From Sphingopyxis sp. (lineage in GTDB: Bacteria; Pseudomonadota; Alphaproteobacteria; Sphingomonadales; Sphingomonadaceae), in NCBI RefSeq assembly GCF_965279725.1, contig NZ_CBDIIL010000002.1, positions 147,804 to 211,803 on the forward strand: a DNA stretch of 64,000 nt. Direction: 5' to 3'. The position numbers and the translations under genes were made by a program. The notes below the pieces were generated by a model. It made no database searches. It saw only the letters and a list, made by a program, of their open reading frames with translations, and was not told the origin of the DNA. Below are positions 1 through 43,012 of this stretch, piece after piece. Position 1 is the stretch's first letter; each line of letters opens with the position of its first letter.

Positions 1-458
1 AACTTTGTGCGGCCATAGGGATTGGTCGCAGAGGTGGGATGGCTCTCGTCGAGTGGCAGATATTGCGGCTGGCCATAGACCGTCGCGCTTGATGAGAAGA
101 CCAGCGTCTTGGCCCCGCAGTCGGCCATCGCTTCGATCAGCGACAAGGTACCGCGGACATTGTTGTCATAATATTTGATCGGCTCGGCGACCGATTCGCC
201 GACGGCTTTCAAACCGGCAAAATGAACGACCGCCTCGACGCCGTGATCAGCGATGGCTTGGCGAACCGCGCCGCCGTCGCGGATGTCGCCGACAACGAGC
301 GGGATGACGGTACCGGTGATCGCTTCGAGCCGGTCGATCACGTCGGCGTCGCTATTCGCGAGATTGTCGAAACAGACAACTTCGTGTCCCGAGGAAACCA
401 ACGCGGCCGCTACGTGGCTGCCGATATACCCCGTGCCGCCGGTCAAAAGTATCTTCAT
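1..458 (-). CDS. galE: UDP-glucose 4-epimerase (5' part only; gene runs off the window edge)
   Basis: Minus-strand translation MKILLTGGTGYIGSH...HFAGLKAVGESV...YYDNNV...FSSSATVYG...NPYGRTK gives the GxxGxxG and YxxxK motifs typical of GalE. Not in the ORF track. An alternative in-frame ATG lies at 476. Confidence 0.93.
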   Translation of the reverse strand, partial: MKILLTGGTGYIGSHVAAALVSSGHEVVCFDNLANSDADVIDRLEAITGTVIPLVVGDIRDGGAVRQAIADHGVEAVVHFAGLKAVGESVAEPIKYYDNNVRGTLSLIEAMADCGAKTLVFSSSATVYGQPQYLPLDESHPTSATNPYGRTK

Positions 459-493
459 CGATCGTCCCGCCTCCATGCGGATATTTGCTGCGT

Positions 494-1510
494 TTATGGG
501 TTGCCGACCGGGCGCGTTGTCCATTCGTCGCGATACCATGTCACGAAAGCCGGGATACCCAAAGACATCGGCGTTGATGGCGCAAAGCCCAGATCTCGGC
601 TGATATCGTCAATGTCGGCAAAAGTCTGATAAACGTCGCCGTCCTGCATGGGCAACAAATTGATTGGGGCTTTGCGACCGCATGCGTCTTCGATCGCGTG
701 GATCAGGTCGGTCAGCTGCTCCGGTTTATTGTTACCGATGTTGTACAGTCGGTGCGGGGTCGTGAAGCCCCCCGGCTTCTCGACGCCATCGTCCCGCGGC
801 GGGTTGTCGAGCGCAAGCACAACGCCGTTGACGATATCATCGATGAAGGTGAAATCGCGGAGCATGTCGCCGTGATTGTAAACGTCGATCGGTCGACCCT
901 GCAAAACCGCTTCGGTAAACCTCCATACCGCCATGTCGGGGCGGCCCCACGGGCCATATACGGTAAAGAAGCGCAGGCCGGTCTGCGGCAGGCGAAAAAG
1001 ATGGGCGTAGGTTTCGCTCATCAACTCGTCGGCGCGCTTCGTCGCAGCATAAAGCGAAATCGGCGTATCGGCGCGATCGGCCACGCGAAACGGTGTATCC
1101 GACCGCATGCCATATACGGACGATGATGAGGCATAGACGAGATGCGCGATCGCTCTATGGCGCGCGAGCTCCAAAATATTCACATGCCCCGCGACGTTGG
1201 AATGGATGTAGGCGGCAGGATTTTCGAGCGAATAGCGCACCCCGGGCTGCGCACCAAGATGGACGATCCGATCGATTTCCACGTTGGACAACGCTTGCGA
1301 GAGGGCGCTTGCGTCGCCGAAATCGACATTCAGAAAAGTGAATTGCTCACCACCGATTTCCCGAAGCCGTGTGACGCGCGCGCGTTTGAGATCGAGCGAA
1401 TAATAGGGTGTGAAATTGTCGATGCCGACGACGCGCTCGCCGCGTCCCAGTAACGTCGCCGCCACATGCATTCCGATAAAGCCAGCAGCGCCGGTGATGA
1501 GTGTCGTCAA
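494..1510 (-). CDS. NAD-dependent epimerase, UDP-glucuronate 4-epimerase-like
   Basis: LITGAAGFIG, HLGAQPGVRYSLENP, YAATKRADE, RFFTVYGPWGRPDMA. Start set at TTG 1510; the ORF track extends to 1657. Confidence 0.88.
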   Translation of the reverse strand: MTTLITGAAGFIGMHVAATLLGRGERVVGIDNFTPYYSLDLKRARVTRLREIGGEQFTFLNVDFGDASALSQALSNVEIDRIVHLGAQPGVRYSLENPAAYIHSNVAGHVNILELARHRAIAHLVYASSSSVYGMRSDTPFRVADRADTPISLYAATKRADELMSETYAHLFRLPQTGLRFFTVYGPWGRPDMAVWRFTEAVLQGRPIDVYNHGDMLRDFTFIDDIVNGVVLALDNPPRDDGVEKPGGFTTPHRLYNIGNNKPEQLTDLIHAIEDACGRKAPINLLPMQDGDVYQTFADIDDISRDLGFAPSTPMSLGIPAFVTWYRDEWTTRPVGNP

Positions 1511-1733
1511 ATTCCGTCCCCGTTTCGAATCCCGACCGGCGCGTTGTTCCCGCACGAGTGTCGCCATCGCGGTTACGATTGAGCAGCCGCTGCAGCCTTT
1601 ATCAAGGTAAGCGGTAAATTCACGGGTAACAGCAGCAAGATTATTGACGGAGTCCAACCGCAGGTCATGAGCGCCCGCTGCGACCGATGTGGGCGCCGCC
1701 GCTTGGCGCGGCCGTCGTTAAGGATTGGAAATA

Positions 1734-1809
1734 TGGTGAGCCCTGCTGGGTTCGAACCAGCGACCTACTGATTAAAAGTCAGTTGCTCTACCGACTGAGC
1801 TAAGGGCCC
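1734..1809 (-). tRNA. tRNA-Lys (anticodon UUU)
   Basis: Reverse complement GGGCCCTTAGCTCAGTCGGTAGAGCAACTGACTTTTAATCAGTAGGTCGCTGGTTCGAACCCAGCAGGGCTCACCA: 76 nt, cloverleaf, encoded CCA. Confidence 0.97.
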
Positions 1810-1849
1810 ATCGCGGCGCTGCAAAGGCAGCGTGCGAAAGTGAGCCGTC

Positions 1850-1878
1850 GCCCTAGTGCGCCGCTGCGCCCCGGTCAA
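1850..1878 (-). promoter_or_regulatory. Putative sigma70 promoter of tRNA-Lys inside the folK 3' end
   Basis: TTGACC-N17-TAGGGC on the minus strand, about 40 nt upstream of the tRNA. The -10 box overlaps the folK TAG stop. Confidence 0.45.
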
Positions 1879-2374
1879 CCGGCTTTGGACGTGCAAGCCG
1901 TGCTGCGAGTTGCCGAATGCTGCGACCGTGGAGCGGGTGCTGCCATTCGGGGACGATTGCGCGCAGCGGGCCGAGGACAAAGGCGCGTTGTTCTATCGCC
2001 CGATGCGGGATGGTCAGCGTGCCGTCGGACCAGATGCCGCCCGACCACAGCAGAATATCGAGGTCGAGCGTTCGCGCGCTCCAGCGCTGGCCAGTACGGC
2101 GTCCGAAGCTCGCTTCAATGGCCTGCAGACGGTCAAGCATTTCGGGCGGGCGCAGCATCGAGGCGACGAGCGCGACGGCGTTCGCATACCGCCGACGCGA
2201 GGGGCCGAGCGGATCGCTGGCGATGATCGGGCTGGCATCGACCGCTTCGATATCGTCGCTTTCGAGCGCCGCGAGCGCCGCAAGCAACACGGCGCGCGGA
2301 TCACCAAAGCGCGCATGGCGCCGGTTCGACCCGAGGCCGATGGCGTAAAGGGGGATCGGCATTGCGCTGGTCAT
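1853..2374 (-). CDS. folK: 2-amino-4-hydroxy-6-hydroxymethyldihydropteridine diphosphokinase
   Basis: YAIGLGSN, YANAVA, RWSARTLDLDILLW, LTIPH...RAFVLGPL. Start set at ATG 2374. Confidence 0.93.
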   Translation of the reverse strand: MTSAMPIPLYAIGLGSNRRHARFGDPRAVLLAALAALESDDIEAVDASPIIASDPLGPSRRRYANAVALVASMLRPPEMLDRLQAIEASFGRRTGQRWSARTLDLDILLWSGGIWSDGTLTIPHRAIEQRAFVLGPLRAIVPEWQHPLHGRSIRQLAARLARPKPVDRGAAAH

Positions 2375-2397
2375 GACCCCGCGCCTATCCCAGCTGT

Positions 2398-3087
2398 GTG
2401 GAAATTGTAAGTCCATTGCCCGGCACGGAGCCTTCGCCCGATTGCCCACGCTGCCCGCGGCTCGTGGCGTTTCGCGCCGCGTGCCGTGCCGAATATCCTG
2501 ATTGGTGGAACGCGCCGGTCCATGCGTTTGGCGATCCGGGCGCGTGGCTGGCTTTGGTGGGACTCGCCCCCGGCAAGCATGGCGCCAATCGCACCGGGCG
2601 TCCCTTCACCGGCGACTATGCTGGCGATCTGCTGTTCGCGACGCTCGCCGAATTCGGTCTGAGCGAGGGGCAGTACGATCGCCGGAGCGGCGACGGGCTG
2701 AGGCTCGACGGCGCGATCATTCTCAACAGCGTCAAATGCCTGCCGCCGCAGAACAAGCCGACGTCGCAGGAGATTGCTGCCTGCCGCACCTTCTTCGAGC
2801 AGCAGCTTGCAGCGCTGCGCGGTGTTCGCGTGATCATCGCGCTGGGCCGGATCGCGCATGATGCCGTGCTGCGTTCGGCAAATGAACGGCTGGCGATGCA
2901 CCCGTTCACGCACGGCGCGGTTCACGCGCTGGCTGACGGACGCCAACTGATCGATAGCTATCATTGCTCGCGTTACAACACGAACACCGGGCGTCTGACA
3001 CCGCAGATGTTCGGCAATGTGTTTCGTACAGCGCTGGCGCTGCGCGATCAGACCAGCGGACCAAATTCCTCGACCAGCCCACGGTAG
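2398..3087 (+). CDS. Uracil-DNA glycosylase, family 5 (UdgB-like, Fe-S)
   Basis: CPRCPRL Cys cluster, GLAPGKHGANRTGRPFTGD, KCLPPQNKP, SYHCSRYNTNTG. Confidence 0.9.
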   Translation: MEIVSPLPGTEPSPDCPRCPRLVAFRAACRAEYPDWWNAPVHAFGDPGAWLALVGLAPGKHGANRTGRPFTGDYAGDLLFATLAEFGLSEGQYDRRSGDGLRLDGAIILNSVKCLPPQNKPTSQEIAACRTFFEQQLAALRGVRVIIALGRIAHDAVLRSANERLAMHPFTHGAVHALADGRQLIDSYHCSRYNTNTGRLTPQMFGNVFRTALALRDQTSGPNSSTSPR

Positions 3088-3524
3088 AGGACCCGCTTGA
3101 ACGGCACGATCAACTTTTCGATCTCGTTCAGTTCGGCCCATTTCCAGGCCCGAAACTCCTGATGCTTAGTCGCGATGTTCACATCGCTGTCGTCGCCCAT
3201 GAAGCGCATCAGGAACCAGTGCTGGCGCTGGCCGCGATATTTGCCGCCCCACATTTTGCCGACCAGAGCGTCCGGCAAGTCATAGAAATATTCCTCGCGG
3301 CTGCGCGCAATGATTTCGACTAACCCGCCATGGATGCCGGTTTCCTCGCCCAACTCGCGGATCGCCGCCATTTCAGCATCTTCGCCGGGGTCGATTCCAC
3401 CTTGCGGCATCTGCCACGCCTCGCTCGACGTATCGAGTCGCTGACCGACGAATATCCGCCCATCGCGATTGGCGAGCATCACCCCGGCGCAGGGGCGATA
3501 AGGGAGGGTGGCAGGGTCGATCAT
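3048..3524 (-). CDS. rppH: RNA pyrophosphohydrolase (Nudix)
   Basis: YRPCAGVML, WQMPQGGID...AAIRELGEETG Nudix box, KYRGQRQHWF. Confidence 0.93.
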   Translation of the reverse strand: MIDPATLPYRPCAGVMLANRDGRIFVGQRLDTSSEAWQMPQGGIDPGEDAEMAAIRELGEETGIHGGLVEIIARSREEYFYDLPDALVGKMWGGKYRGQRQHWFLMRFMGDDSDVNIATKHQEFRAWKWAELNEIEKLIVPFKRVLYRGLVEEFGPLV

Positions 3525-4667: not shown

Positions 4668-6530
4668 ATGGCGACAGCGGTAGTGGACGAAACCGACAAA
4701 CGGCCGTCCCCCCTTTCGGATGCAGTGGTAGTCAGGTTTGCAGGCGACAGCGGCGACGGGATGCAGTTGACCGGTGGTCAGTTCACGCTGTCTTCGGCGC
4801 TGGCGGGCAATGATTTCGCCACCTTCCCCGATTTTCCTGCCGAAATCCGCGCTCCGCAGGGTACATTATTCGGAGTCTCGGCATTCCAGATCAATTTCGG
4901 ATCGTCGGCGATCGAAACCGCGGGCGATGCCCCGGACGTGCTGGTCGCGATGAACCCGGCGGCACTAAAGACAAATGTCCCGTCGCTGAAGCAGGGCGGC
5001 CTGATCATCGCTGACGAGGGCGAGTTCAACGACCGCAACCTCGCCAAGGCGAAATATGACGCTAATCCGCTCGACGACGGCAGCCTGGCCAAATGGCAGT
5101 TGCTGAAACTCAACATCAGCCAGCTGACGATGGATGCGGTGAAGCCGTTCGGCCTTGGCAACAAGGAAGCGCTGCGCTGCAAGAATATGTGGACGCTGGG
5201 GCTTGCGCTCTGGATGTTCGATCGGGACCGTGCGCCGCTGGTCGATTGGCTAAACGCGAAGTTCGCCAAGTCGCCGGATCTCGCCGCCGCCAATATCGCC
5301 GCGCTCAATGCTGGCCATGCTTATGGCGAAACCGCCGAACTGGCCGGGCCGCTCAAGCAGCATCATGTCGATCCGGCGCCTGCCGCGCCCGGCCTCTACC
5401 GTACGCTGACCGGCGCCGAGGGCATCGCGCTCGGGTTGGTCGCGGGGGCGCAGCTTGCCAAGCTGCCGATGTTTTTCGGCGGTTATCCGATCACGCCCGC
5501 GTCGGCGATTCTGCACCATTTGTCGCGGCTCAAAGAATATGACGTCACGACCTTTCAGGCCGAGGACGAAATTGCCGCGATCTGTTCGGCGATCGGCGCC
5601 AGCTATGGCGGTTCGCTCGGCGTCACTTCCTCGTCCGGCCCCGGCATCGCGCTGAAGGGCGAGGCGATGGGCCTCGCGATCATGACCGAACTGCCGCTCG
5701 TCATCGTCAATTCGCAGCGCGGCGGTCCATCGACCGGCCTGCCGACCAAAACCGAGCAGTCGGATCTGTATCAGGCGGTTTACGGCCGCAACGGCGACGC
5801 GCCGATGCCGGTGATCTCGGCACGCTCGCCCGGCGACGCATTTGATTGCGCAATCGAGGCGGTCCGCATCGCGGTGCAATATATGACCCCGGTGATCCTG
5901 CTGACCGACGGCTATATCGCCAATGCGGCCGAGCCGTGGGCGGTGCCTGACCTGACGACTTACGAGGCGTTCCCGGTCGAATTCCTGACCGAAGTGCCCG
6001 AAGGCGGGTTCAAGCCTTATGGCCGCGATGAAAATCTCAAGCGTCCGTGGGTCAAGCCGGGCACGCCTGGCTTGCTCCACCGCATCGGCGGGATCGAGAA
6101 GGAACTCGACACCGGCCACATCAATTATGAGGCGTCGAACCATCAGGCGATGACCGACATCCGCAAGGCGAAGATCGATGGCATCAAGGTTCCCGATCAG
6201 ATCGTCGAACTCGGCGCCGAGAGCGGCAAGCTCGCGGTCGTCGGGTGGGGCTCGACCTTTGGCCCGATCCATCAGGCAGTGCGCCGCAAGCGCGCTGAGG
6301 GTCTCGACGTCAGCCATATCCACATCCGCCACATCTGGCCGCTGCCCGCCAATCTGGGCGAGCTGCTCAAAAGCTATGACAAGGTCATCGTTCCCGAAAT
6401 GAACACCGGCCAATTGAAGACCGTGCTGCGCGACCAGTATCTGGTCGATGCCAAGCCGGTGAATAAGGTGTCAGGACAGCCTTTCACGATTGCAGAGATC
6501 GAAGCCGCCATCGAGGAGGCACTAGCATGA
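4668..6530 (+). CDS. korA: 2-oxoacid:ferredoxin oxidoreductase subunit alpha (gamma-alpha fusion)
   Basis: RFAGDSGDGMQLTG, GYPITPAS, QAEDEIAA, QRGGPSTGLPT, PEMNTGQL. Confidence 0.92.
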   Translation: MATAVVDETDKRPSPLSDAVVVRFAGDSGDGMQLTGGQFTLSSALAGNDFATFPDFPAEIRAPQGTLFGVSAFQINFGSSAIETAGDAPDVLVAMNPAALKTNVPSLKQGGLIIADEGEFNDRNLAKAKYDANPLDDGSLAKWQLLKLNISQLTMDAVKPFGLGNKEALRCKNMWTLGLALWMFDRDRAPLVDWLNAKFAKSPDLAAANIAALNAGHAYGETAELAGPLKQHHVDPAPAAPGLYRTLTGAEGIALGLVAGAQLAKLPMFFGGYPITPASAILHHLSRLKEYDVTTFQAEDEIAAICSAIGASYGGSLGVTSSSGPGIALKGEAMGLAIMTELPLVIVNSQRGGPSTGLPTKTEQSDLYQAVYGRNGDAPMPVISARSPGDAFDCAIEAVRIAVQYMTPVILLTDGYIANAAEPWAVPDLTTYEAFPVEFLTEVPEGGFKPYGRDENLKRPWVKPGTPGLLHRIGGIEKELDTGHINYEASNHQAMTDIRKAKIDGIKVPDQIVELGAESGKLAVVGWGSTFGPIHQAVRRKRAEGLDVSHIHIRHIWPLPANLGELLKSYDKVIVPEMNTGQLKTVLRDQYLVDAKPVNKVSGQPFTIAEIEAAIEEALA

Positions 6531-7564
6531 ACGAGATGACGACGATCGCCCGCACCACGACGCTCAAGGATTGGGAAACCGACCAGGAAGTGCGCTGGTG
6601 CCCCGGGTGCGGCGACTATGCGATACTGAAGGCGGTGCAGCGCACGATGCCCGAAATCGGCACCGCGCCCGAAAACACCGTGTTTATCAGCGGCATCGGC
6701 TGCTCGTCGCGCTTTCCCTATTATATGGAAACCTATGGCTTCCATACGATCCACGGGCGCGCGCCCGCATTCGCGACGGGGCTGAAGCTCGCCAATCCGA
6801 ACCTCGACGTGTGGATCGTCACCGGCGATGGTGACGGGCTGTCGATTGGCGGCAATCATACGATGCACCTGATCCGCCGCAATCTCGATTGCCAGATCAT
6901 GCTGTTCAACAACGAGATTTACGGCCTGACCAAGGGGCAATATTCGCCGACGAGCCGGGTTGGGACGACCAGCCCGTCGACACCCTATGGGTCGGTCGAT
7001 CGTCCGGCGCAGCCTGCCGCGTTTGCGCTCGGTGCGGGGTCTCGCTTCGTGGCGCGCGGATTCGACATATCGAAGAAACTGCCGGAAGTGTTGAAGGCCG
7101 CTCATGCGCACAAGGGTGCGGCCTTTATCGAAATTTTCCAGAACTGTATCGTCTATAACAAGGACGTGTTCGAGGATTTTGCTGCGCCGAAGGGCGCCGA
7201 GGATCGCCAACTATGGCTCGAGAATGGCGAGCCCATGCTGTTCGCAAAAGGCACCAAGGGGATCGCGCTCGACGCCGAGGCGCTGCACCTTAAAACCGTC
7301 GATGTCGTCGATGGCGACTGGCAGGCCGCGGGGGTGATCGTCCATGACGTCACCAACCGCAGCGTCGCGCATATGCTCGTCGAAATGCCGTTTGGCGAGT
7401 TCCCCATGGCTCTGGGCGTCCTATACGACGATCCGCGTCCAACCTTTGAGGCCGACGTTTGGCGTCAGAATGCAGCGGCGCGCGAAGGCAAGACCGCGGA
7501 CCTGCAAAGCCTGTTGAAAAAAGGGCAGACCTGGACGGTGACCGAAGGCGGCCCCGAGCTGTAG
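6527..7564 (+). CDS. korB: 2-oxoacid:ferredoxin oxidoreductase subunit beta
   Basis: WCPGCGD, SGIGCSSR, HGRAPA, GDGD TPP motif, NNEIYGLTKGQ. ATGA overlap with korA. Confidence 0.92.
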   Translation: MNEMTTIARTTTLKDWETDQEVRWCPGCGDYAILKAVQRTMPEIGTAPENTVFISGIGCSSRFPYYMETYGFHTIHGRAPAFATGLKLANPNLDVWIVTGDGDGLSIGGNHTMHLIRRNLDCQIMLFNNEIYGLTKGQYSPTSRVGTTSPSTPYGSVDRPAQPAAFALGAGSRFVARGFDISKKLPEVLKAAHAHKGAAFIEIFQNCIVYNKDVFEDFAAPKGAEDRQLWLENGEPMLFAKGTKGIALDAEALHLKTVDVVDGDWQAAGVIVHDVTNRSVAHMLVEMPFGEFPMALGVLYDDPRPTFEADVWRQNAAAREGKTADLQSLLKKGQTWTVTEGGPEL

Positions 7565-7656
7565 TCGCGGCGAGGGTTCGGTGGCCATGGCGTGAAACCG
7601 TGAACCGGTCCGCATAACGCGTTGCAAAGGCACCGGATCCGCGCCACCAAGCTGCA

Positions 7657-8616
7657 ATGGACAATCTAACGCACAGCCTTGTCGGCGCGGTACTCGGCCA
7701 AATGGGGCTCAAGAAGAAGACCGGGCTGGCAATCCCGACGCTGATTCTGGCGGCAAACGTGCCCGACATCGATGCTGCGTGTCTGGCCTGGCTCGACGGC
7801 ATTCAGCACCTGGGCTTTCGCCGCGGAATTACGCATGGCCCGATCGCGCTGATTGTCCTGCCTATTCTGCTCTGGGCGGCGATGCTGGCGTTCGATCGCT
7901 GGCAGGATCGGCGCGGCAAAAGGCCGGCGGGGCGCTTACCGATCGACAAGGGTTGGCTGCTGGCGCTGGCGTACATCGGCTGCCTCAGCCATCCGGCGCT
8001 CGACTGGCTCAACAATTATGGCATCCGCCTGCTCGAACCGTTCAGCCATCGCTGGTTTTACGGCGACACGCTGTTCATCATCGATTTGTGGATATGGATT
8101 GCGTTGGGCCTGTCGGTGTGGATTTCGCTGCGCCGCGAGCGGGGCGGGGCGGCGAACTGGCAGCGACCGGCGTGGATCGGTTTCACAGCGGTTTGCGCTT
8201 ATATTTTTGCCAATGGCTTGATCACGGGCGCTGCTGAACGGACGACCGCTAGCGCGCTGGCGGCGAGCGGACACCTCGACGCGCTGGTCGTCGCCAGCCC
8301 GCCGCCGTTGGCGTTTTGGCAACGCGATATCTTCTGGCGCACCACCGAGCGCTATGGGAGCGGCAGTTTCACGCCCGGTATGGGCGGGACGCTGGATATT
8401 AGCGGATTAACTACGGGTATGGACGATCCGCGTCTCAAGACATGGTTGATGGGCGATCCCGATGCCCGCGCGTTCCTGTTCTGGTCGCGAATGCCGGTGG
8501 GGCAGGCCGACGGCGATGCGATCCTGCTGCGCGACCAGCGTTTCATGCATCCGCTGTCGCAGGACCGGTTCCAGGTCCGGTTGACCGCGCCCGACACCGC
8601 AACCCACGAAGAATGA
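7657..8616 (+). CDS. Metal-dependent inner-membrane hydrolase (YdjM-like)
   Basis: MDNLTHSL, ANVPDID, HRGITHG-like RRGITHG, SHPALDWLNNYG, several TM segments. Confidence 0.8.
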   Translation: MDNLTHSLVGAVLGQMGLKKKTGLAIPTLILAANVPDIDAACLAWLDGIQHLGFRRGITHGPIALIVLPILLWAAMLAFDRWQDRRGKRPAGRLPIDKGWLLALAYIGCLSHPALDWLNNYGIRLLEPFSHRWFYGDTLFIIDLWIWIALGLSVWISLRRERGGAANWQRPAWIGFTAVCAYIFANGLITGAAERTTASALAASGHLDALVVASPPPLAFWQRDIFWRTTERYGSGSFTPGMGGTLDISGLTTGMDDPRLKTWLMGDPDARAFLFWSRMPVGQADGDAILLRDQRFMHPLSQDRFQVRLTAPDTATHEE

Positions 8617-40005: not shown

Positions 40006-40033
40006 GGTCGGGCTGGCGAATCGACCGATGGAC

Positions 40034-40063
40034 GGCTAGCTTCCTCGCAAGAGGGGGCTAGCC
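40034..40063 (+). promoter_or_regulatory. 13-bp stem-loop with GCAA tetraloop covering the Shine-Dalgarno of the TIR gene
   Basis: GGCTAGCTTCCTC-GCAA-GAGGGGGCTAGCC: all 13 positions pair (two G.U). Ends 1 nt before ATG 40065. No U tract follows. Confidence 0.65.
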
Positions 40064-40064
40064 G

Positions 40065-41246
40065 ATGGTCGATGTGTTCATTTCCTATTCGCGCGACAAC
40101 AAGGCGCGGGTGGCGGACATCGCCAAGGCGGTCGCCGCAGCGGGTTATGACGTGTGGTGGGATGCCGAACTACCACCGCATCGTTCCTATGGCGACGTCA
40201 TCACTGAAAAAATTGGCAGCGCCAAGGCAGCGATCGTCGTCTGGTCGCATGCGTCGGTGCAATCCGAATGGGTGCGCGCCGAGGCCGATGTAGCGCGTAA
40301 CCAGAAAAAACTGGTCCAGACGGCGATCGACGATGTGATGCCGCCGCTGCCGTTCAACCAGATCCAGTTCGCTGACCTGCGCGACTGGAACGGTGATCCC
40401 GCTGATGGCAGTTGGCGCAAAGTGTTGATGAGCCTGGAGGAACTGTGCGGGCGCGAAGCCGTCGCGCCGCCGCCGCCCATGCCAACCGCCGCGCCCGAAA
40501 CGACGACGCCTTCGACCGATCGGCAGGTTGCCCCGGCGCCGCCAAAATCCTCGTCCACCGCTCTGAAGCTGGCCTGGGCGCTTGTCGGTGTCGCTGTGAT
40601 CGCGATCGGCTTGCTCGCATGGAAACTGCTGCAGCCCGCAGCCGAGCCGGCTCGAACGATGCCGGAAACGATTGCCGCGTCGAGCGAGAAAGGCGTGGCA
40701 GCAACCCCCGGAGTAGCAACTGACGGTCCGGCTGAGGCTTTCACGCTGGCAGCCGTCATCGAAGACCCTGATGGCTTCACCAATATCCGATCAGGTGCAA
40801 GCACGCAGGCGGCGATCGTCGGCAAGGTGCTCGAGGGCGAGAAGTTCCTGACGTACAAGCAGCGCGGTCCATGGTGGCGCGTCCGGAAGGCCGACGGCAC
40901 CACGGGTTTCATGTTCCGCAAATATATCCGATTGGTCGAGGGCGGTGTCGCCACGTCATCCGCACCGCCGATGCCGACCGGGGTCGGGGGCAGCGGAGTG
41001 GTCATTCCCGATTCATCCGACCGAGCACTAACCGCAGACGAGCTGGGCAATTATAGCGCGTTGGAGCTGCGCATTGCGCGAAACGAAATCTTCGCGCGGC
41101 GCGGTTTGCGGTTCAAAGACCCGGCGCTCAGCGCCCATTTTACGCAGTTCAGCTGGTATCGACCGACGACCAAAAATGTATCGCTGTCGCCGACCGAACA
41201 GGCCAATGTCGACTTGCTCCAATCGGCTGAAACTGCGGCGCGATGA
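40065..41246 (+). CDS. TIR domain - TM - bacterial SH3 - YARHG domain protein
   Basis: VFISYS, WWD, SEWVRAE (WxxxE, E73); Pro-rich linker; TM LAWALVGVAVIAIGLLAW; SH3b-like DPDGFTNIRSG...WWRV...GTTGFM; YARHG-like LRIARNEIFARRG. Confidence 0.8.
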   Translation: MVDVFISYSRDNKARVADIAKAVAAAGYDVWWDAELPPHRSYGDVITEKIGSAKAAIVVWSHASVQSEWVRAEADVARNQKKLVQTAIDDVMPPLPFNQIQFADLRDWNGDPADGSWRKVLMSLEELCGREAVAPPPPMPTAAPETTTPSTDRQVAPAPPKSSSTALKLAWALVGVAVIAIGLLAWKLLQPAAEPARTMPETIAASSEKGVAATPGVATDGPAEAFTLAAVIEDPDGFTNIRSGASTQAAIVGKVLEGEKFLTYKQRGPWWRVRKADGTTGFMFRKYIRLVEGGVATSSAPPMPTGVGGSGVVIPDSSDRALTADELGNYSALELRIARNEIFARRGLRFKDPALSAHFTQFSWYRPTTKNVSLSPTEQANVDLLQSAETAAR

Positions 41247-43012
41247 CGGACTGCGCCGCCTGCGAGGCGGAAGTCACCCACCGCTTGGGTCAGGGCGATG
41301 CGCTCAGCGCATTCGATTGTGCGGTAGCCGCGCGGCGTGCGGGACAAGACAGCCCGCGCCTTTGTTACCTGATGGTCCGCGCGCTCGCTGCATCGGGAGA
41401 TAGCCTGGGCGCAATGCATCTTTACGAACAGCTTCAGCTGGGCACGTCCGACGACATCGACAGCCTCGCGCTTGCCGGGCGTATCTGGAAGGATGCAGCG
41501 TTCGATCATGATGGTGATCGGCGGACAGATTCGCTTCGAAAGGCAGCGCGCGCCTATGACCGCGCGTGGCAGCTTTCGGGCGCCCTGTTTCCGGCCATCA
41601 ATGCGGCCAGTCTTTATGCGATGCTCGGCGAACGCGAGCGGGCGGCGGCGTTGGCGGGACCGATCGCCGCGAATGGGGCTGCAGAGGATTACTGGGATCA
41701 GGCGACACTGGCCGAGGCCTTGCTGTTGCTCGGCCGCGGCGAGGATGCACTGCGCCACGCGCGATCGGCCAATGATCAGGCGGGAACGCGCGCCGGCGAC
41801 CGCGCGTCGACCTGCCGCCAGCTGTCGCGGCTTGCCGCCTGCGGTGCGATCGACGCGGCAAATGCCACCGCGATTTGCGATTTGCTGCGGCCGCCGCCGG
41901 TGGGTGTCTTTTGCGGGCGCATGTTCCGTGCCGGCGGCGTGGGCGAGGCGAACGCACGGTCGGCGATTGCCGCAGCGCTCGATGCCGAGCCGCTGTCGGC
42001 GCTGATCGGCCCGCTCGCGTGCGGCGCCGACATCCTCTTCGCCGAAGCGGCGCTGGCGCGTGGGATCGACCTTACGATCATATTGCCCTTTGCCGAAGAC
42101 GACTTCATCGCCCAGTCCGTCGTATCGGGCGGCGAACAATGGCTGCCGCGTTATGTGCATTGCCGCGACCATGCGGCGACGGTCCATTTTGCCAGCAGCG
42201 CGCGTTACGTCAGCGACGACTGTCAATTTGTGCTGGGCTCGCACACCGCGATGGGGCTTGCCAAACTCCGCGCGCACGAGTTGGAAACTGCGGCGATCCA
42301 GTTGGCGGTGGTCGATCCCGAGGTGGCTGCTCGGCCCGCCGCGTTGATTGCGGGGACGAATGCCGACATCGCGCTGTGGCAGCGGCATGGCGGATCGACA
42401 CGGACAATTCCGGTCGGCGATCTCGACCGCAATCTTGACTTCCTGCCCGCTCCAAAGCCGCCCGAAGGAACGCAGCGCGGGCTTTACGCGATCCTGTTCG
42501 CCGACTTTGCGGGCTTTTCGAAACTGGGCGAAGCCGAACTTCCGATTTTTGCCAGCGAAGTGATGGGCAGAATCGGGGGCATCCTCGACGATTTTGGCGA
42601 CGCCGTGCTGTTTCGCAACACGTGGGGCGACGCGGTTTATGCGATCATCGACGACCCTGCGACGGCGGCGCGGATTGCGCTTGCGATACAGGAGAGGCTG
42701 GATGTGCTTCCGCCGGGACTGGGCCTCGACGGACACCGGGCGGGGATGCGAACCGGCATCCATTTCGGCCCGATCTATCGCGGCCAAGACCCCGTCGTCG
42801 GCAACGAGCTATGGTACGGCACCGAGGTGACCCGCACCGCAAGGATCGAGCCGGTGACGCTGGTCGGACAGGTGTATTGCACCCAGCCGCTCGCGGCGAT
42901 GCTGGCGCTCGGCAACGCGCGCGATTTCGATTGCGACTATGTCGGCAAGGTGCAACTCGCCAAGGATTATGGCGAGCTGGCCCTATACCGCCTGTCGCGT
43001 CGGTCAGTCTGA
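41243..43012 (+). CDS. TPR - SLOG-like - class III nucleotide cyclase protein
   Basis: TPR-like helices (LAGRIWKD, FPAINAASL, DYWDQATLAEA); GPLACGADILFAE...IILPF (DprA/SLOG-like); cyclase ILFADFAGFS, TWGDA, RTGIHFGP, ARIE. ATGA overlap with the TIR gene. Confidence 0.78.
   Translation: MTDCAACEAEVTHRLGQGDALSAFDCAVAARRAGQDSPRLCYLMVRALAASGDSLGAMHLYEQLQLGTSDDIDSLALAGRIWKDAAFDHDGDRRTDSLRKAARAYDRAWQLSGALFPAINAASLYAMLGERERAAALAGPIAANGAAEDYWDQATLAEALLLLGRGEDALRHARSANDQAGTRAGDRASTCRQLSRLAACGAIDAANATAICDLLRPPPVGVFCGRMFRAGGVGEANARSAIAAALDAEPLSALIGPLACGADILFAEAALARGIDLTIILPFAEDDFIAQSVVSGGEQWLPRYVHCRDHAATVHFASSARYVSDDCQFVLGSHTAMGLAKLRAHELETAAIQLAVVDPEVAARPAALIAGTNADIALWQRHGGSTRTIPVGDLDRNLDFLPAPKPPEGTQRGLYAILFADFAGFSKLGEAELPIFASEVMGRIGGILDDFGDAVLFRNTWGDAVYAIIDDPATAARIALAIQERLDVLPPGLGLDGHRAGMRTGIHFGPIYRGQDPVVGNELWYGTEVTRTARIEPVTLVGQVYCTQPLAAMLALGNARDFDCDYVGKVQLAKDYGELALYRLSRRSV

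Follow-up and report, generated by a model that had tools for sequence, protein, structure and literature searches.

Our data show that, in Sphingopyxis and related bacteria, a gene encoding a TIR domain protein travels together with a gene encoding a class III nucleotide cyclase, and suggest that the two form an undescribed relay leading from an NAD-derived signal to cyclic nucleotide synthesis. This picture is built on the domain identities of the two proteins, the conservation of catalytic residues in both, and their genetic linkage by adjacency, fusion, and joint presence or absence.

A TIR gene overlaps a gene encoding a three-part cyclase

Within the window (the whole stretch of Sphingopyxis sp. 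DNA that was analyzed, 64,000 nucleotides), we identified the following features:

40033..40067, + strand: RNA hairpin just 3′ of the DUF885 stop codon, spanning the Shine-Dalgarno sequence and start codon (ATG) of the TIR gene
40065..41246, + strand: TIR partner gene (393 aa), upstream of the cyclase gene
41243..43012, + strand: TPR-S/SLOG-like/class III cyclase gene (589 aa), whose ATG overlaps the TIR gene stop codon (ATGA)
41243..41887, + strand: TPR-S region, all-helical, residues 1-215 (Pfam PF20308 and PF13281; PF20308 match at 30-124)
41888..42418, + strand: SLOG-like Rossmann-type domain, residues 216-392 (Foldseek matches; HMM match to LOG)
42470..43000, + strand: class III cyclase homology domain, residues 410-586 (Pfam PF00211, Foldseek, HMM alignments)

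A prior sequence-only reading placed a gene for a TPR-SLOG-cyclase protein at 41243-43012. That open reading frame is real and its product is 589 aa long, but the partner gene at 40065-41246 had been left out. The proposed three-domain architecture is borne out by Pfam matches to TPR-S and Guanylate_cyc and by fold matches of the middle domain, and every motif quoted in that reading is present: FADFAGFS (D421), RNTWGD (N459, D463), ELWYG (L523), VTRTARIE (T530, R534), and GPLACGAD (residues 256-263). An AlphaFold2 model of the full-length protein is confident (pLDDT 90, pTM 0.90). Homologs with 50-89% identity are found in many Sphingopyxis and other Sphingomonadales, and searches of the protein against PADLOC models (PycC included) and NCBIfam gave no matches.

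The cyclase domain retains catalytic residues and departs from the canonical base-specifying ones

The C-terminal domain scores above the Pfam Guanylate_cyc (PF00211) cut-off (24.5 versus 21.9 bits; 28.7 bits for the domain alone). Foldseek matches it to isolated solved catalytic domains with E = 3e-8 and target-normalized TM-scores mostly of 0.6-0.85, and the closest solved sequence is Rv1264 (E = 3.9e-7). We set the residue register with HMM profile alignments to solved cyclases, and counted conservation in an alignment of 109 family members. The metal-binding residues D421 and D463, the phosphate-binding residues R503 and K574, and the transition-state residue R534 all align with their canonical counterparts and are kept in 98-106 of the 109 members. 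Retention of both metal Asp residues had been read correctly from the sequence, and so had the by-eye register of the remaining positions: N459 aligns with the Lys of 3mr7, Ma1120, Rv1264, and Rv1625c and with the Glu of the 3et6 guanylate cyclase; the hydrophobic L523 sits where the adenylate cyclases have Asp and the guanylate cyclase has Cys; and T530 aligns with the catalytic Asn. Neither canonical base pair (Lys/Asp for ATP, Glu/Cys for GTP) nor the catalytic Asn is present. This signature is family-wide, with Asn at the Lys/Glu position in 94/109 members, Asn, Thr, Ser, or Ala at the Asp/Cys position, and Thr or Ser at the catalytic Asn position in 85/109.

With Asn, Leu, and Thr at these three positions, base preference is unpredictable from sequence, and the Thr that replaces the catalytic Asn could reduce activity or change it. 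In the Mycobacterium tuberculosis adenylate cyclase Rv1900c, the Lys position is occupied by Asn and the Asn position by His; if this precedent holds, substitutions of the N459/T530 type would not by themselves exclude cAMP as the product. Overall, the protein shares with class III cyclases that carry an N-terminal sensor (Rv1264, for example) the catalytic fold, the two metal Asp residues, the phosphate-binding Arg and Lys, the transition-state Arg, and the sensor-then-cyclase layout. It differs from them in its base pair (Asn/Leu here; Asn with Asn, Thr, Ser, or Ala in the wider family), in the Thr or Ser that replaces the catalytic Asn, and in its sensor, which consists of a TPR-S region and a SLOG-like domain.

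The N-terminal repeats belong to the TPR-S family

The N-terminal region does contain TPR repeats, as had been noted, but they are specifically of the TPR-S family rather than generic (Pfam PF20308, E = 4.3e-12, 46.9 bits versus a cut-off of 27.6). Its conserved polar residues are R80, K83, D84, Y105, N120, E158, T190, and Q193. The TPR-S family was reportedly defined by Burroughs and Aravind in 2020. Our family profile also matches the central regulatory region of the animal kinase ASK1 (5ulm, E = 4e-5; a second ASK1 structure, 8qgy, is matched as well), and the 589-aa protein itself matches Pfam MAP3K_TRAF_bd. The repeats of ASK1/MAP3K5 are thus homologous to those described here, whereas the output of ASK1 is a protein kinase of a eukaryotic pathway for stress and immunity, and ASK1 has neither a SLOG-like nor a cyclase domain.

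The middle domain has a SLOG-like fold

We modeled the middle domain separately, because cyclase matches dominated the fold search when the full-length model was used. The resulting AlphaFold model (pLDDT 92) found ShosA, DprA, LOG, and a MoCo-carrier protein as its best PDB matches in Foldseek, with probabilities of 0.91-1.00 for the first three and 0.57 for the last; E-values were no better than 1e-4 to 1e-2, and most TM-scores fell in the weak range of 0.38-0.46. In profile searches, the best non-spurious match was Pseudomonas aeruginosa LOG, a weak match (E = 0.07) that aligns GPLACGAD in register with the LOG loop GGGAVGLMG. Together, the model and these matches support a fold of the SLOG type, as the sequence-only reading had proposed from the GPLACGAD loop. 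Even at E ≤ 10, residues 205-410 match no Pfam family, and hence no curated SLOG profile, and ThsA is absent from the top 50 fold matches.

Two motifs mark the domain: G256-P-L-A-C-G261-A-D263 follows strand 2, and A370-G-T372-N-A-D375 lies at the N-terminus of a helix in the model, with G371 kept in 108/109 and T372 in 103/109 family members. We equated the second motif with the PGGxGTxxE motif of LOG by inspection only. Further near-invariant residues are E268, P282, S292, V293, G297, W300, R303, D325, G338, and W379. The domain is widespread, with 1767 cluster representatives carrying it, and, like LOG, it could have an enzymatic role instead of a sensory one.

The partner is a predicted receptor-like TIR protein

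The 393-aa partner contains a TIR domain (residues 4-111; Pfam TIR_2, E = 6e-21), a transmembrane helix at residues ~163-191 that is its single hydrophobic segment, an SH3b domain (239-288; SH3_3, E = 2.9e-10), and a YARHG domain (311-389; E = 3.6e-22). We predict a single-pass, receptor-like membrane protein with its TIR domain in the cytoplasm and its SH3b and YARHG domains outside it. The TIR catalytic Glu (E73 here) is invariant across 74/74 partner TIR domains, from which we predict catalytic competence. The TIR domain also shows weak ThsB-like matches (PADLOC ThsB, E = 9e-6; Pfam ThsB_TIR, E = 0.007).

TIR and cyclase genes are adjacent, fused, and jointly present or absent

We examined 80 related loci, found by searching with an alignment of closer relatives. 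A TIR gene adjoins the cyclase gene in 66 of the 80, plus one weak case; of the 13 others, five are cut by contig ends and eight have adequate flanks. The linkage takes three independent forms. A TIR-TM-(SH3)-YARHG gene may lie upstream of the cyclase gene, a TIR-FHA gene may lie downstream (in Sphingomonas and Sphingomicrobium), or the two may be fused into a single TPR-S-SLOG-cyclase-TIR chain, as in P0168 and in P0259, which shows no match to TPR-S and seems to be truncated at its N-terminus. P0272 adds a protein kinase to the same fusion. Short SLOG-cyclase proteins that lack TPR-S also adjoin TIR genes. At ten distant members checked elsewhere in the phylum, no TIR lies within 1.5 kb, so the cyclase family may also respond to other inputs. 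Two relatives carry a precomputed Pfam assignment, PF27626.

The module is carried by 31 of the 81 genomes of the genus and 55 of the 251 of the order. In Sphingopyxis, the TIR and cyclase genes come and go together between DUF885 and rsmB: in two genomes without the module these flanking genes lie 63-67 bp apart, and in other genomes the slot is either vacant or occupied by a glycosyltransferase gene. The locus shows synteny throughout the genus, with neighboring genes for a PALP enzyme, a serine hydrolase, an MFS transporter, DUF885, rsmB, cytochrome b561, SapC, and an FAD oxidase; in Erythrobacteraceae, the neighbor is pyruvate kinase. By inspection, no defense genes lie near the module at the Sphingopyxis and Erythrobacteraceae loci. 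Clustering of flanking ORFs gave only lineage-specific housekeeping synteny, with no conserved third gene for a receptor, phosphodiesterase, or effector, and at the loci examined the module has no cNMP receptor or effector of its own. The genome itself encodes five cNMP-binding proteins and, besides this one, a single class III cyclase.

A search of phage records with the middle domain gave no matches, and plasmid copies are rare. Two lie on Caballeronia megaplasmids; on a Caballeronia plasmid, a TIR and DUF4231 gene pair is located ~3.4 kb from the family member. A Novosphingobium plasmid carries a cyclase-less TPR-S-SLOG gene adjoining a TIR-TPR gene.

A possible relay from a TIR-made messenger to a cyclic nucleotide

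We give about even credence to a model in which the two-gene module makes an NAD-derived messenger with its TIR domain, senses it through the TPR-S/SLOG-like region, and thereby gates the cyclase. A cell-envelope cue would activate the TIR domain, which would turn NAD+ into a messenger derived from ADP-ribose, for instance a cADPR isomer. In the 589-aa protein, the TPR-S domain, the SLOG-like domain, or both would bind this messenger, and binding would switch on the C-terminal cyclase, probably by promoting a productive dimer. The resulting 3′,5′-cyclic nucleotide would then act on receptors encoded elsewhere. In this scheme we infer the direction of signaling, the identity of the messenger, the domain that binds it, and the product of the cyclase.

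We favor the relay because of the ATGA operon, the TIR adjacency in its three arrangements, the joint presence and absence of the two genes, the conserved catalytic residues, and the precedents for TPR-S and SLOG domains as sensors; the short SLOG-cyclase proteins beside TIR genes, and a genome with five cNMP-binding proteins and one other class III cyclase, point the same way. Ligand gating had been proposed from the cyclase protein alone, and it now gains strong contextual support from a TIR enzyme that is encoded next door, inherited together with the cyclase, and in some proteins fused to it. Since SLOG-cyclase proteins without TPR-S also adjoin TIR genes, the ligand may be bound by the TPR-S region, the SLOG-like domain, or both. 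Against the relay we count the eight loci with adequate flanks and no TIR gene, the ten distant members, the weak fold match of the middle domain (TM 0.38-0.46), Thr530, the possibility that the SLOG-like domain is an enzyme, and the lack of a linked cNMP receptor or effector.

More tentatively, and with the balance of probability against it, the module may be a receptor-type TIR pathway serving physiology rather than immunity. An envelope-coupled (SH3b/YARHG) or FHA/kinase-coupled TIR protein would make an NAD-derived messenger, which a TPR-S/SLOG-like reader would turn into a second, possibly non-canonical cyclic nucleotide (neither cAMP nor cGMP), giving a two-tier cascade with the topology of a Toll-like receptor.

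Alternative roles for the module

The same chemistry could serve a different biological role, Thoeris-type anti-phage defense, which we consider unlikely. Phage infection would activate the TIR domain, and its signal would activate the cyclase as an effector that depletes NTPs or makes a toxic or alarm cyclic nucleotide. The accessory distribution of the module across genus and order, its variable slot, the weak ThsB-like matches of the TIR domain, the use of TPR-S effectors in type VIII Thoeris, and the Caballeronia plasmid member near a TIR and DUF4231 pair are all consistent with this role. However, the neighbors are housekeeping and metabolic rather than defense genes in both Sphingopyxis and Erythrobacteraceae, the locus is syntenic across the genus, and the TIR partners bear envelope-type (SH3b, YARHG) or phospho-signaling (FHA, kinase) input domains. 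The cyclase protein also matches no PADLOC model, its middle domain is unmatched in phage genomes, the protein is rare on plasmids, and the accessible portions of the text and supplements of a survey of 29 Thoeris types contain no cyclase effector.

Signals might instead flow in reverse, with the TPR-S/SLOG-like region sensing a trigger and a cyclic nucleotide activating the TIR protein as an NAD+-consuming effector. Cyclase and TIR-effector pairs of this kind are known from Pycsar (PMC11224242) and cGMP-based Pucsar (bioRxiv 10.64898/2026.08.12.744502), and an invariant TIR catalytic Glu would fit as well. The TIR partners examined carry YARHG, SH3b, FHA, or kinase domains in place of a cyclic-nucleotide-binding domain, however, and PADLOC Pycsar models do not match the cyclase, which makes reverse flow quite improbable. 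We regard as very improbable that the cyclase-like domain makes no cyclic nucleotide at all, and is a regulatory or dimerization module or catalyzes another nucleotidyl transfer, with the TIR domain acting as an adaptor bound by the TPRs. While three of the six canonical catalytic and specificity positions are non-canonical, the Pfam score barely exceeds its threshold, and TPRs are classic protein-binding scaffolds, the near-invariance of the metal and phosphate residues and transition-state Arg across 109 diverse members, and of the TIR Glu, is difficult to account for unless catalysis takes place. Ma1120, which was deposited as an adenylyl cyclase and crystallized with ATP analogs, likewise lacks Asn at the canonical position.

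Relationship to Thoeris and Pycsar systems

Among known systems, type VIII Thoeris, which pairs a TIR protein with a TPR-S effector, comes closest. The TPR of its effector ThsI is a TPR-S region, and ThsI responds to TIR-made cADPR (bioRxiv 10.64898/2025.12.03.692087). A role for TPR-S in perceiving TIR-made canonical cADPR had been predicted, and in type VIII it is shown indirectly. Like BcTir/BcTpr of type VIII, the module described here is a two-gene TIR module whose partner contains TPR-S and whose TIR catalytic Glu is present. As in Thoeris generally, a TIR domain with its catalytic Glu (E73) lies beside a protein bearing signal-sensing domains (TPR-S and SLOG-like), and the genomic association of TPR-S with TIR is seen both in the 66 of 80 loci and in the fusions. 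In contrast to ThsI/BcTpr, where an N-terminal glycosidase of the CMP-hydrolase/DrHyd type precedes the TPR, here TPR-S is followed by the SLOG-like and cyclase domains; the TIR partner is membrane-anchored with SH3b and YARHG domains, and the locus lies outside defense islands.

In type I Thoeris, the SLOG domain of ThsA binds 3′cADPR (bioRxiv 10.64898/2025.12.03.692087). ThsA (SIR2-SLOG) resembles the 589-aa protein in fusing a SLOG-type domain to an enzymatic output linked to a TIR enzyme, but its output is a SIR2 NADase rather than a cyclase, and our middle domain has neither a Pfam SLOG match nor ThsA among its top 50 fold matches. The Pycsar and Pucsar cyclases PycC and PucC are class III-type enzymes altered at the Lys/Glu position, with other products, and also occur with TIR proteins. 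The CTP-specific EaPycC has R142 four residues before its metal Asp D146, where our protein has Asn; Asp94 of the UTP-specific BcPycC is probably at the same position, judged by numbering only. The Pycsar TIR effector carries a cNMP-binding domain, which the TIR partners here lack, and the suggested kinship with Pycsar cyclases found no backing, as no PADLOC model (PycC included) matches the 589-aa protein. In the literature that we consulted, Burroughs and Aravind 2020 aside, we found no described cyclase output for TIR/TPR-S systems.

To our knowledge, all characterized bacterial TIR-based messenger systems end in a killing or growth-arrest effector. If the relay is correct, it would differ from these in passing a TIR signal on to a second messenger, a cyclic nucleotide, and it would join NAD-derived and cyclic-nucleotide signaling in one pathway; its TIR enzyme also differs in looking like a transmembrane receptor. 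It would offer a tractable system for finding ligands of TPR-S and SLOG-like domains, with a bearing on the TPR region of animal ASK1, and would add a large clade of cyclases that share the signature Asn / small-polar / Thr-Ser in the active site and whose middle domain occurs in the 1767 representatives. Should the enzyme prove constitutive or an ordinary adenylate cyclase, the finding would shrink to a new sensor architecture.

A stable RNA hairpin covers the TIR gene start

The region at 40010-40080, which contains the hairpin upstream of the module, folds with a predicted energy of -39.2 kcal/mol (z = -5.6 versus 200 shuffles). The hairpin could act as a translational gate or as a terminator-like element.

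A cyclase protein encoded with a TIR partner

The sequence-only reading described a protein with TPR, SLOG-like and cyclase domains and non-canonical base-specifying residues. Our analysis confirms this observation and extends it with a TIR partner and with evidence that the unusual residues are a family-wide signature. The two genes are:

40065-41246, + strand: TIR partner gene, directly upstream, overlapping the start of the cyclase gene at ATGA
41243-43012, + strand: TPR-S/SLOG-like/cyclase gene, an ORF of 589 aa

In the cyclase protein, Pfam identifies TPR-S (PF20308; residues 30-124, E 4.3e-12), overlapped by a match to MAP3K_TRAF_bd (formerly DUF4071), and Guanylate_cyc (residues 416-573; a weak match, above threshold). 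No Pfam family matches residues 205-410, even at E<=10, and the protein matches no PADLOC model, Pycsar models included. An AlphaFold2 model computed from 31 family members (pLDDT 90, pTM 0.90) predicts an all-helical N-terminal third, a centre of alternating strands and helices, and a C-terminal cyclase fold.

The partner begins with a TIR domain (E 6e-21), which a Pro-rich linker joins to a single hydrophobic helix; SH3b and YARHG domains follow. Since the TIR domain needs the cytoplasm to reach NAD+, the C-terminal SH3b and YARHG domains should face outward. Our literature search found no mention of YARHG together with TIR. After the DUF885 stop and ahead of the TIR gene lies a very stable hairpin (40033-40067, + strand; -39 kcal/mol for the fold of 40010-40080, z -5.6) that pairs the Shine-Dalgarno sequence, includes the ATG and has no U tail; as folded, it could be a translational gate for the TIR gene.

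The SLOG-like domain is the constant partner of TIR

In reference genomes, a TIR gene adjoins the cyclase gene in 66 of 80 related loci, plus one weak case; contig ends truncate 5 of the 13 loci that lack one. When near-identical Sphingopyxis contexts are removed, adjacency holds in 34/46 loci. The TIR gene either lies upstream, encoding TIR-TM-(SH3)-YARHG and sometimes duplicated, or encodes a TIR-FHA protein downstream (Sphingomonas and Sphingomicrobium); in one case the two genes are divergent. The domains can also share a chain, as in P0168 (TPR-S-SLOG-cyclase-TIR), P0259 (760 aa, a TIR fusion with no TPR-S match, apparently N-terminally truncated) and the metagenomic P0272 (1472 aa), which joins TPR-S, SLOG-like, cyclase, TIR and Ser/Thr protein kinase domains. 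Every one of the 74 TIR domains, whether in a partner or fused, keeps the catalytic glutamate (E73). The P0272 kinase and the Sphingomonas TIR-FHA partners hint that the TIR step may be under phospho-threonine control.

Short cyclase proteins in Novosphingobium and Erythrobacteraceae (about 370-390 aa) have SLOG-like and cyclase domains, lack TPR-S, and adjoin a TIR gene. On the 1.8-Mb replicon of Novosphingobium sp. RL4 (locus L109, 3826-8120), a gene encoding TPR-S and SLOG-like domains but no cyclase comes after a TIR-TPR gene. Thus, the constant partner of TIR is the SLOG-like domain. At L109, a convergent gene for a CRP-family regulator (cNMP-binding and HTH) lies directly downstream of the TPR-S/SLOG-like gene.

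Modelled separately, this middle domain (residues 216-392; pLDDT 92) has among its best Foldseek matches in the PDB ShosA, DprA (two species), LOG (two species) and a molybdenum-cofactor carrier protein, all of them SLOG-superfamily members. These matches are weak (E 1e-4 to 1e-2; TM mostly 0.38-0.46, some chains lower). Foldseek assigns probabilities of 0.91-1.00 to ShosA, DprA and LOG and of 0.57 to the carrier protein, and from rank 4 the list is interleaved with TIM-barrel matches that are unrelated and mostly of lower probability. The best non-spurious PDB match to the sequence profile is P. aeruginosa LOG (weak, E 0.07), whose glycine loop aligns with GPLACGAD. Another conserved loop, A-G371-T372-N-A-D375, lies at a helix N-terminus and by inspection resembles the LOG PGGxGTxxE motif. 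We conclude that the domain is SLOG-like and outside every curated SLOG family. Conservation is stronger here than anywhere else in the protein: all of 109 diverse family members keep G261, P282, W300 and G338, and almost all keep D263, E268, R303 and W379, which points to a putative, defined small-molecule site.

The cyclase active site has a family-wide signature

Aligning a profile of the 109 members to solved class III cyclases gave an unambiguous register, and showed that the earlier by-eye register was correct. The pair of metal-binding aspartates is D421 and D463, and R503, K574 and R534 are the phosphate and transition-state residues. N459 aligns with the lysine of adenylate cyclases (3mr7, Ma1120, Rv1264, Rv1625c) and the glutamate of guanylate cyclases (3et6), L523 occupies the Asp/Cys position, and T530 replaces the catalytic asparagine. 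The core is near-invariant (D421 in 106/109, D463 in 104/109, R503 in 105/109, R534 in 103/109, K574 in 98/109). The Lys/Glu position is Asn in 94/109 members and the catalytic-Asn position Thr or Ser in 85/109; the second specificity position is Asn, Thr, Ser or Ala across the family, with Leu restricted to the Sphingopyxis clade. To judge from these sequences, the non-canonical residues are a family signature, not decay, and with the near-invariant core they argue that the enzyme is active, with a base preference that known rules do not predict. Precedents for an altered Lys/Glu position cut both ways. The adenylate cyclase Rv1900c has Asn there. Pycsar cyclases are altered at the same position, with CTP-specific EaPycC carrying R142 four residues before the metal-binding D146 (PMC11224242).

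The sequence-only reading had further proposed a ligand-gated cyclase that may make something other than cAMP. This interpretation is partly supported: the linkage to a TIR enzyme adds contextual support for ligand gating.

A proposed TIR-to-cyclase signal

In type VIII Thoeris, TIR produces canonical cADPR, which activates ThsI, an effector with a CMP-hydrolase domain and a TPR predicted to be the sensor by Aravind and colleagues (bioRxiv 10.64898/2025.12.03.692087). As in the related B. cereus pair BcTir/BcTpr (bioRxiv 10.1101/2023.05.26.542521), TIR is paired with a TPR-S effector. Type I Thoeris uses a SLOG domain to bind 3'cADPR (bioRxiv 10.64898/2025.12.03.692087). By analogy, the most economical model is that the TIR partner would make an NAD-derived messenger, that the TPR-S and/or SLOG-like domain would sense it, and that sensing would gate the cyclase. 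The reverse, Pycsar-like flow from cyclase to TIR is unlikely, because none of the TIR partners examined has a cNMP-binding domain. The available Thoeris survey text and supplements contain no cyclase effector, and the work defining TPR-S could still mention a cyclase fusion. A TPR-S/SLOG-like cyclase controlled by TIR would represent a new form of TIR-based nucleotide signalling.

Distribution and biological role

The cyclase gene is present in 31 of 81 genus genomes (26/66 among high-quality ones), always between DUF885 and rsmB. Two genomes lacking it have a DUF885-rsmB gap of 63-67 bp, and in two others the slot holds a ~335-aa gene (L091, 2841-3851, - strand; L094, 493-1488, + strand) that by sequence looks like a family-2 glycosyltransferase. 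The slot is therefore a small variable site, in which the TIR-cyclase pair is gained or lost as a unit. More widely, the middle domain occurs in 55/251 genomes and 24/77 genera of the order, about 11/385 genomes in the rest of the phylum, and 1767 representative clusters in an all-against-library search, mostly in proteins of ~600 aa with the Sphingopyxis layout. Phage records contain no match to the domain, and the cyclase protein is rare on plasmids.

This patchy, cassette-like distribution keeps a role in defence alive. Three features would favour a role in physiology: the TIR inputs are variable and of signalling type (envelope-facing SH3b and YARHG, FHA, a fused kinase), the gene context is housekeeping, and the output would be diffusible with no linked killer effector. 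Neighbours of the locus in the window are metabolic or housekeeping genes, and flanking genes of related loci include no consistently linked third gene. Besides this cyclase, the Sphingopyxis genome encodes a single further one of class III, together with five cNMP-binding proteins.

No TIR gene turned up in the 1.5-kb flanks of the ten distant loci examined by tblastn; among the seven proteins scanned with Pfam, four have TPR-S and six the cyclase. Plasmid pSBC2-4 of Caballeronia sp. SBC2 (L108, regions 1-3344 and 5322-8476) carries a remote family member with 30% identity. Its gene is translationally coupled to one for an unannotated protein of 463 aa in which Pfam finds no family. About 3.4 kb from the family member is a TIR and DUF4231 gene pair resembling the TIR and SLATT (type VII Thoeris-like) arrangement.
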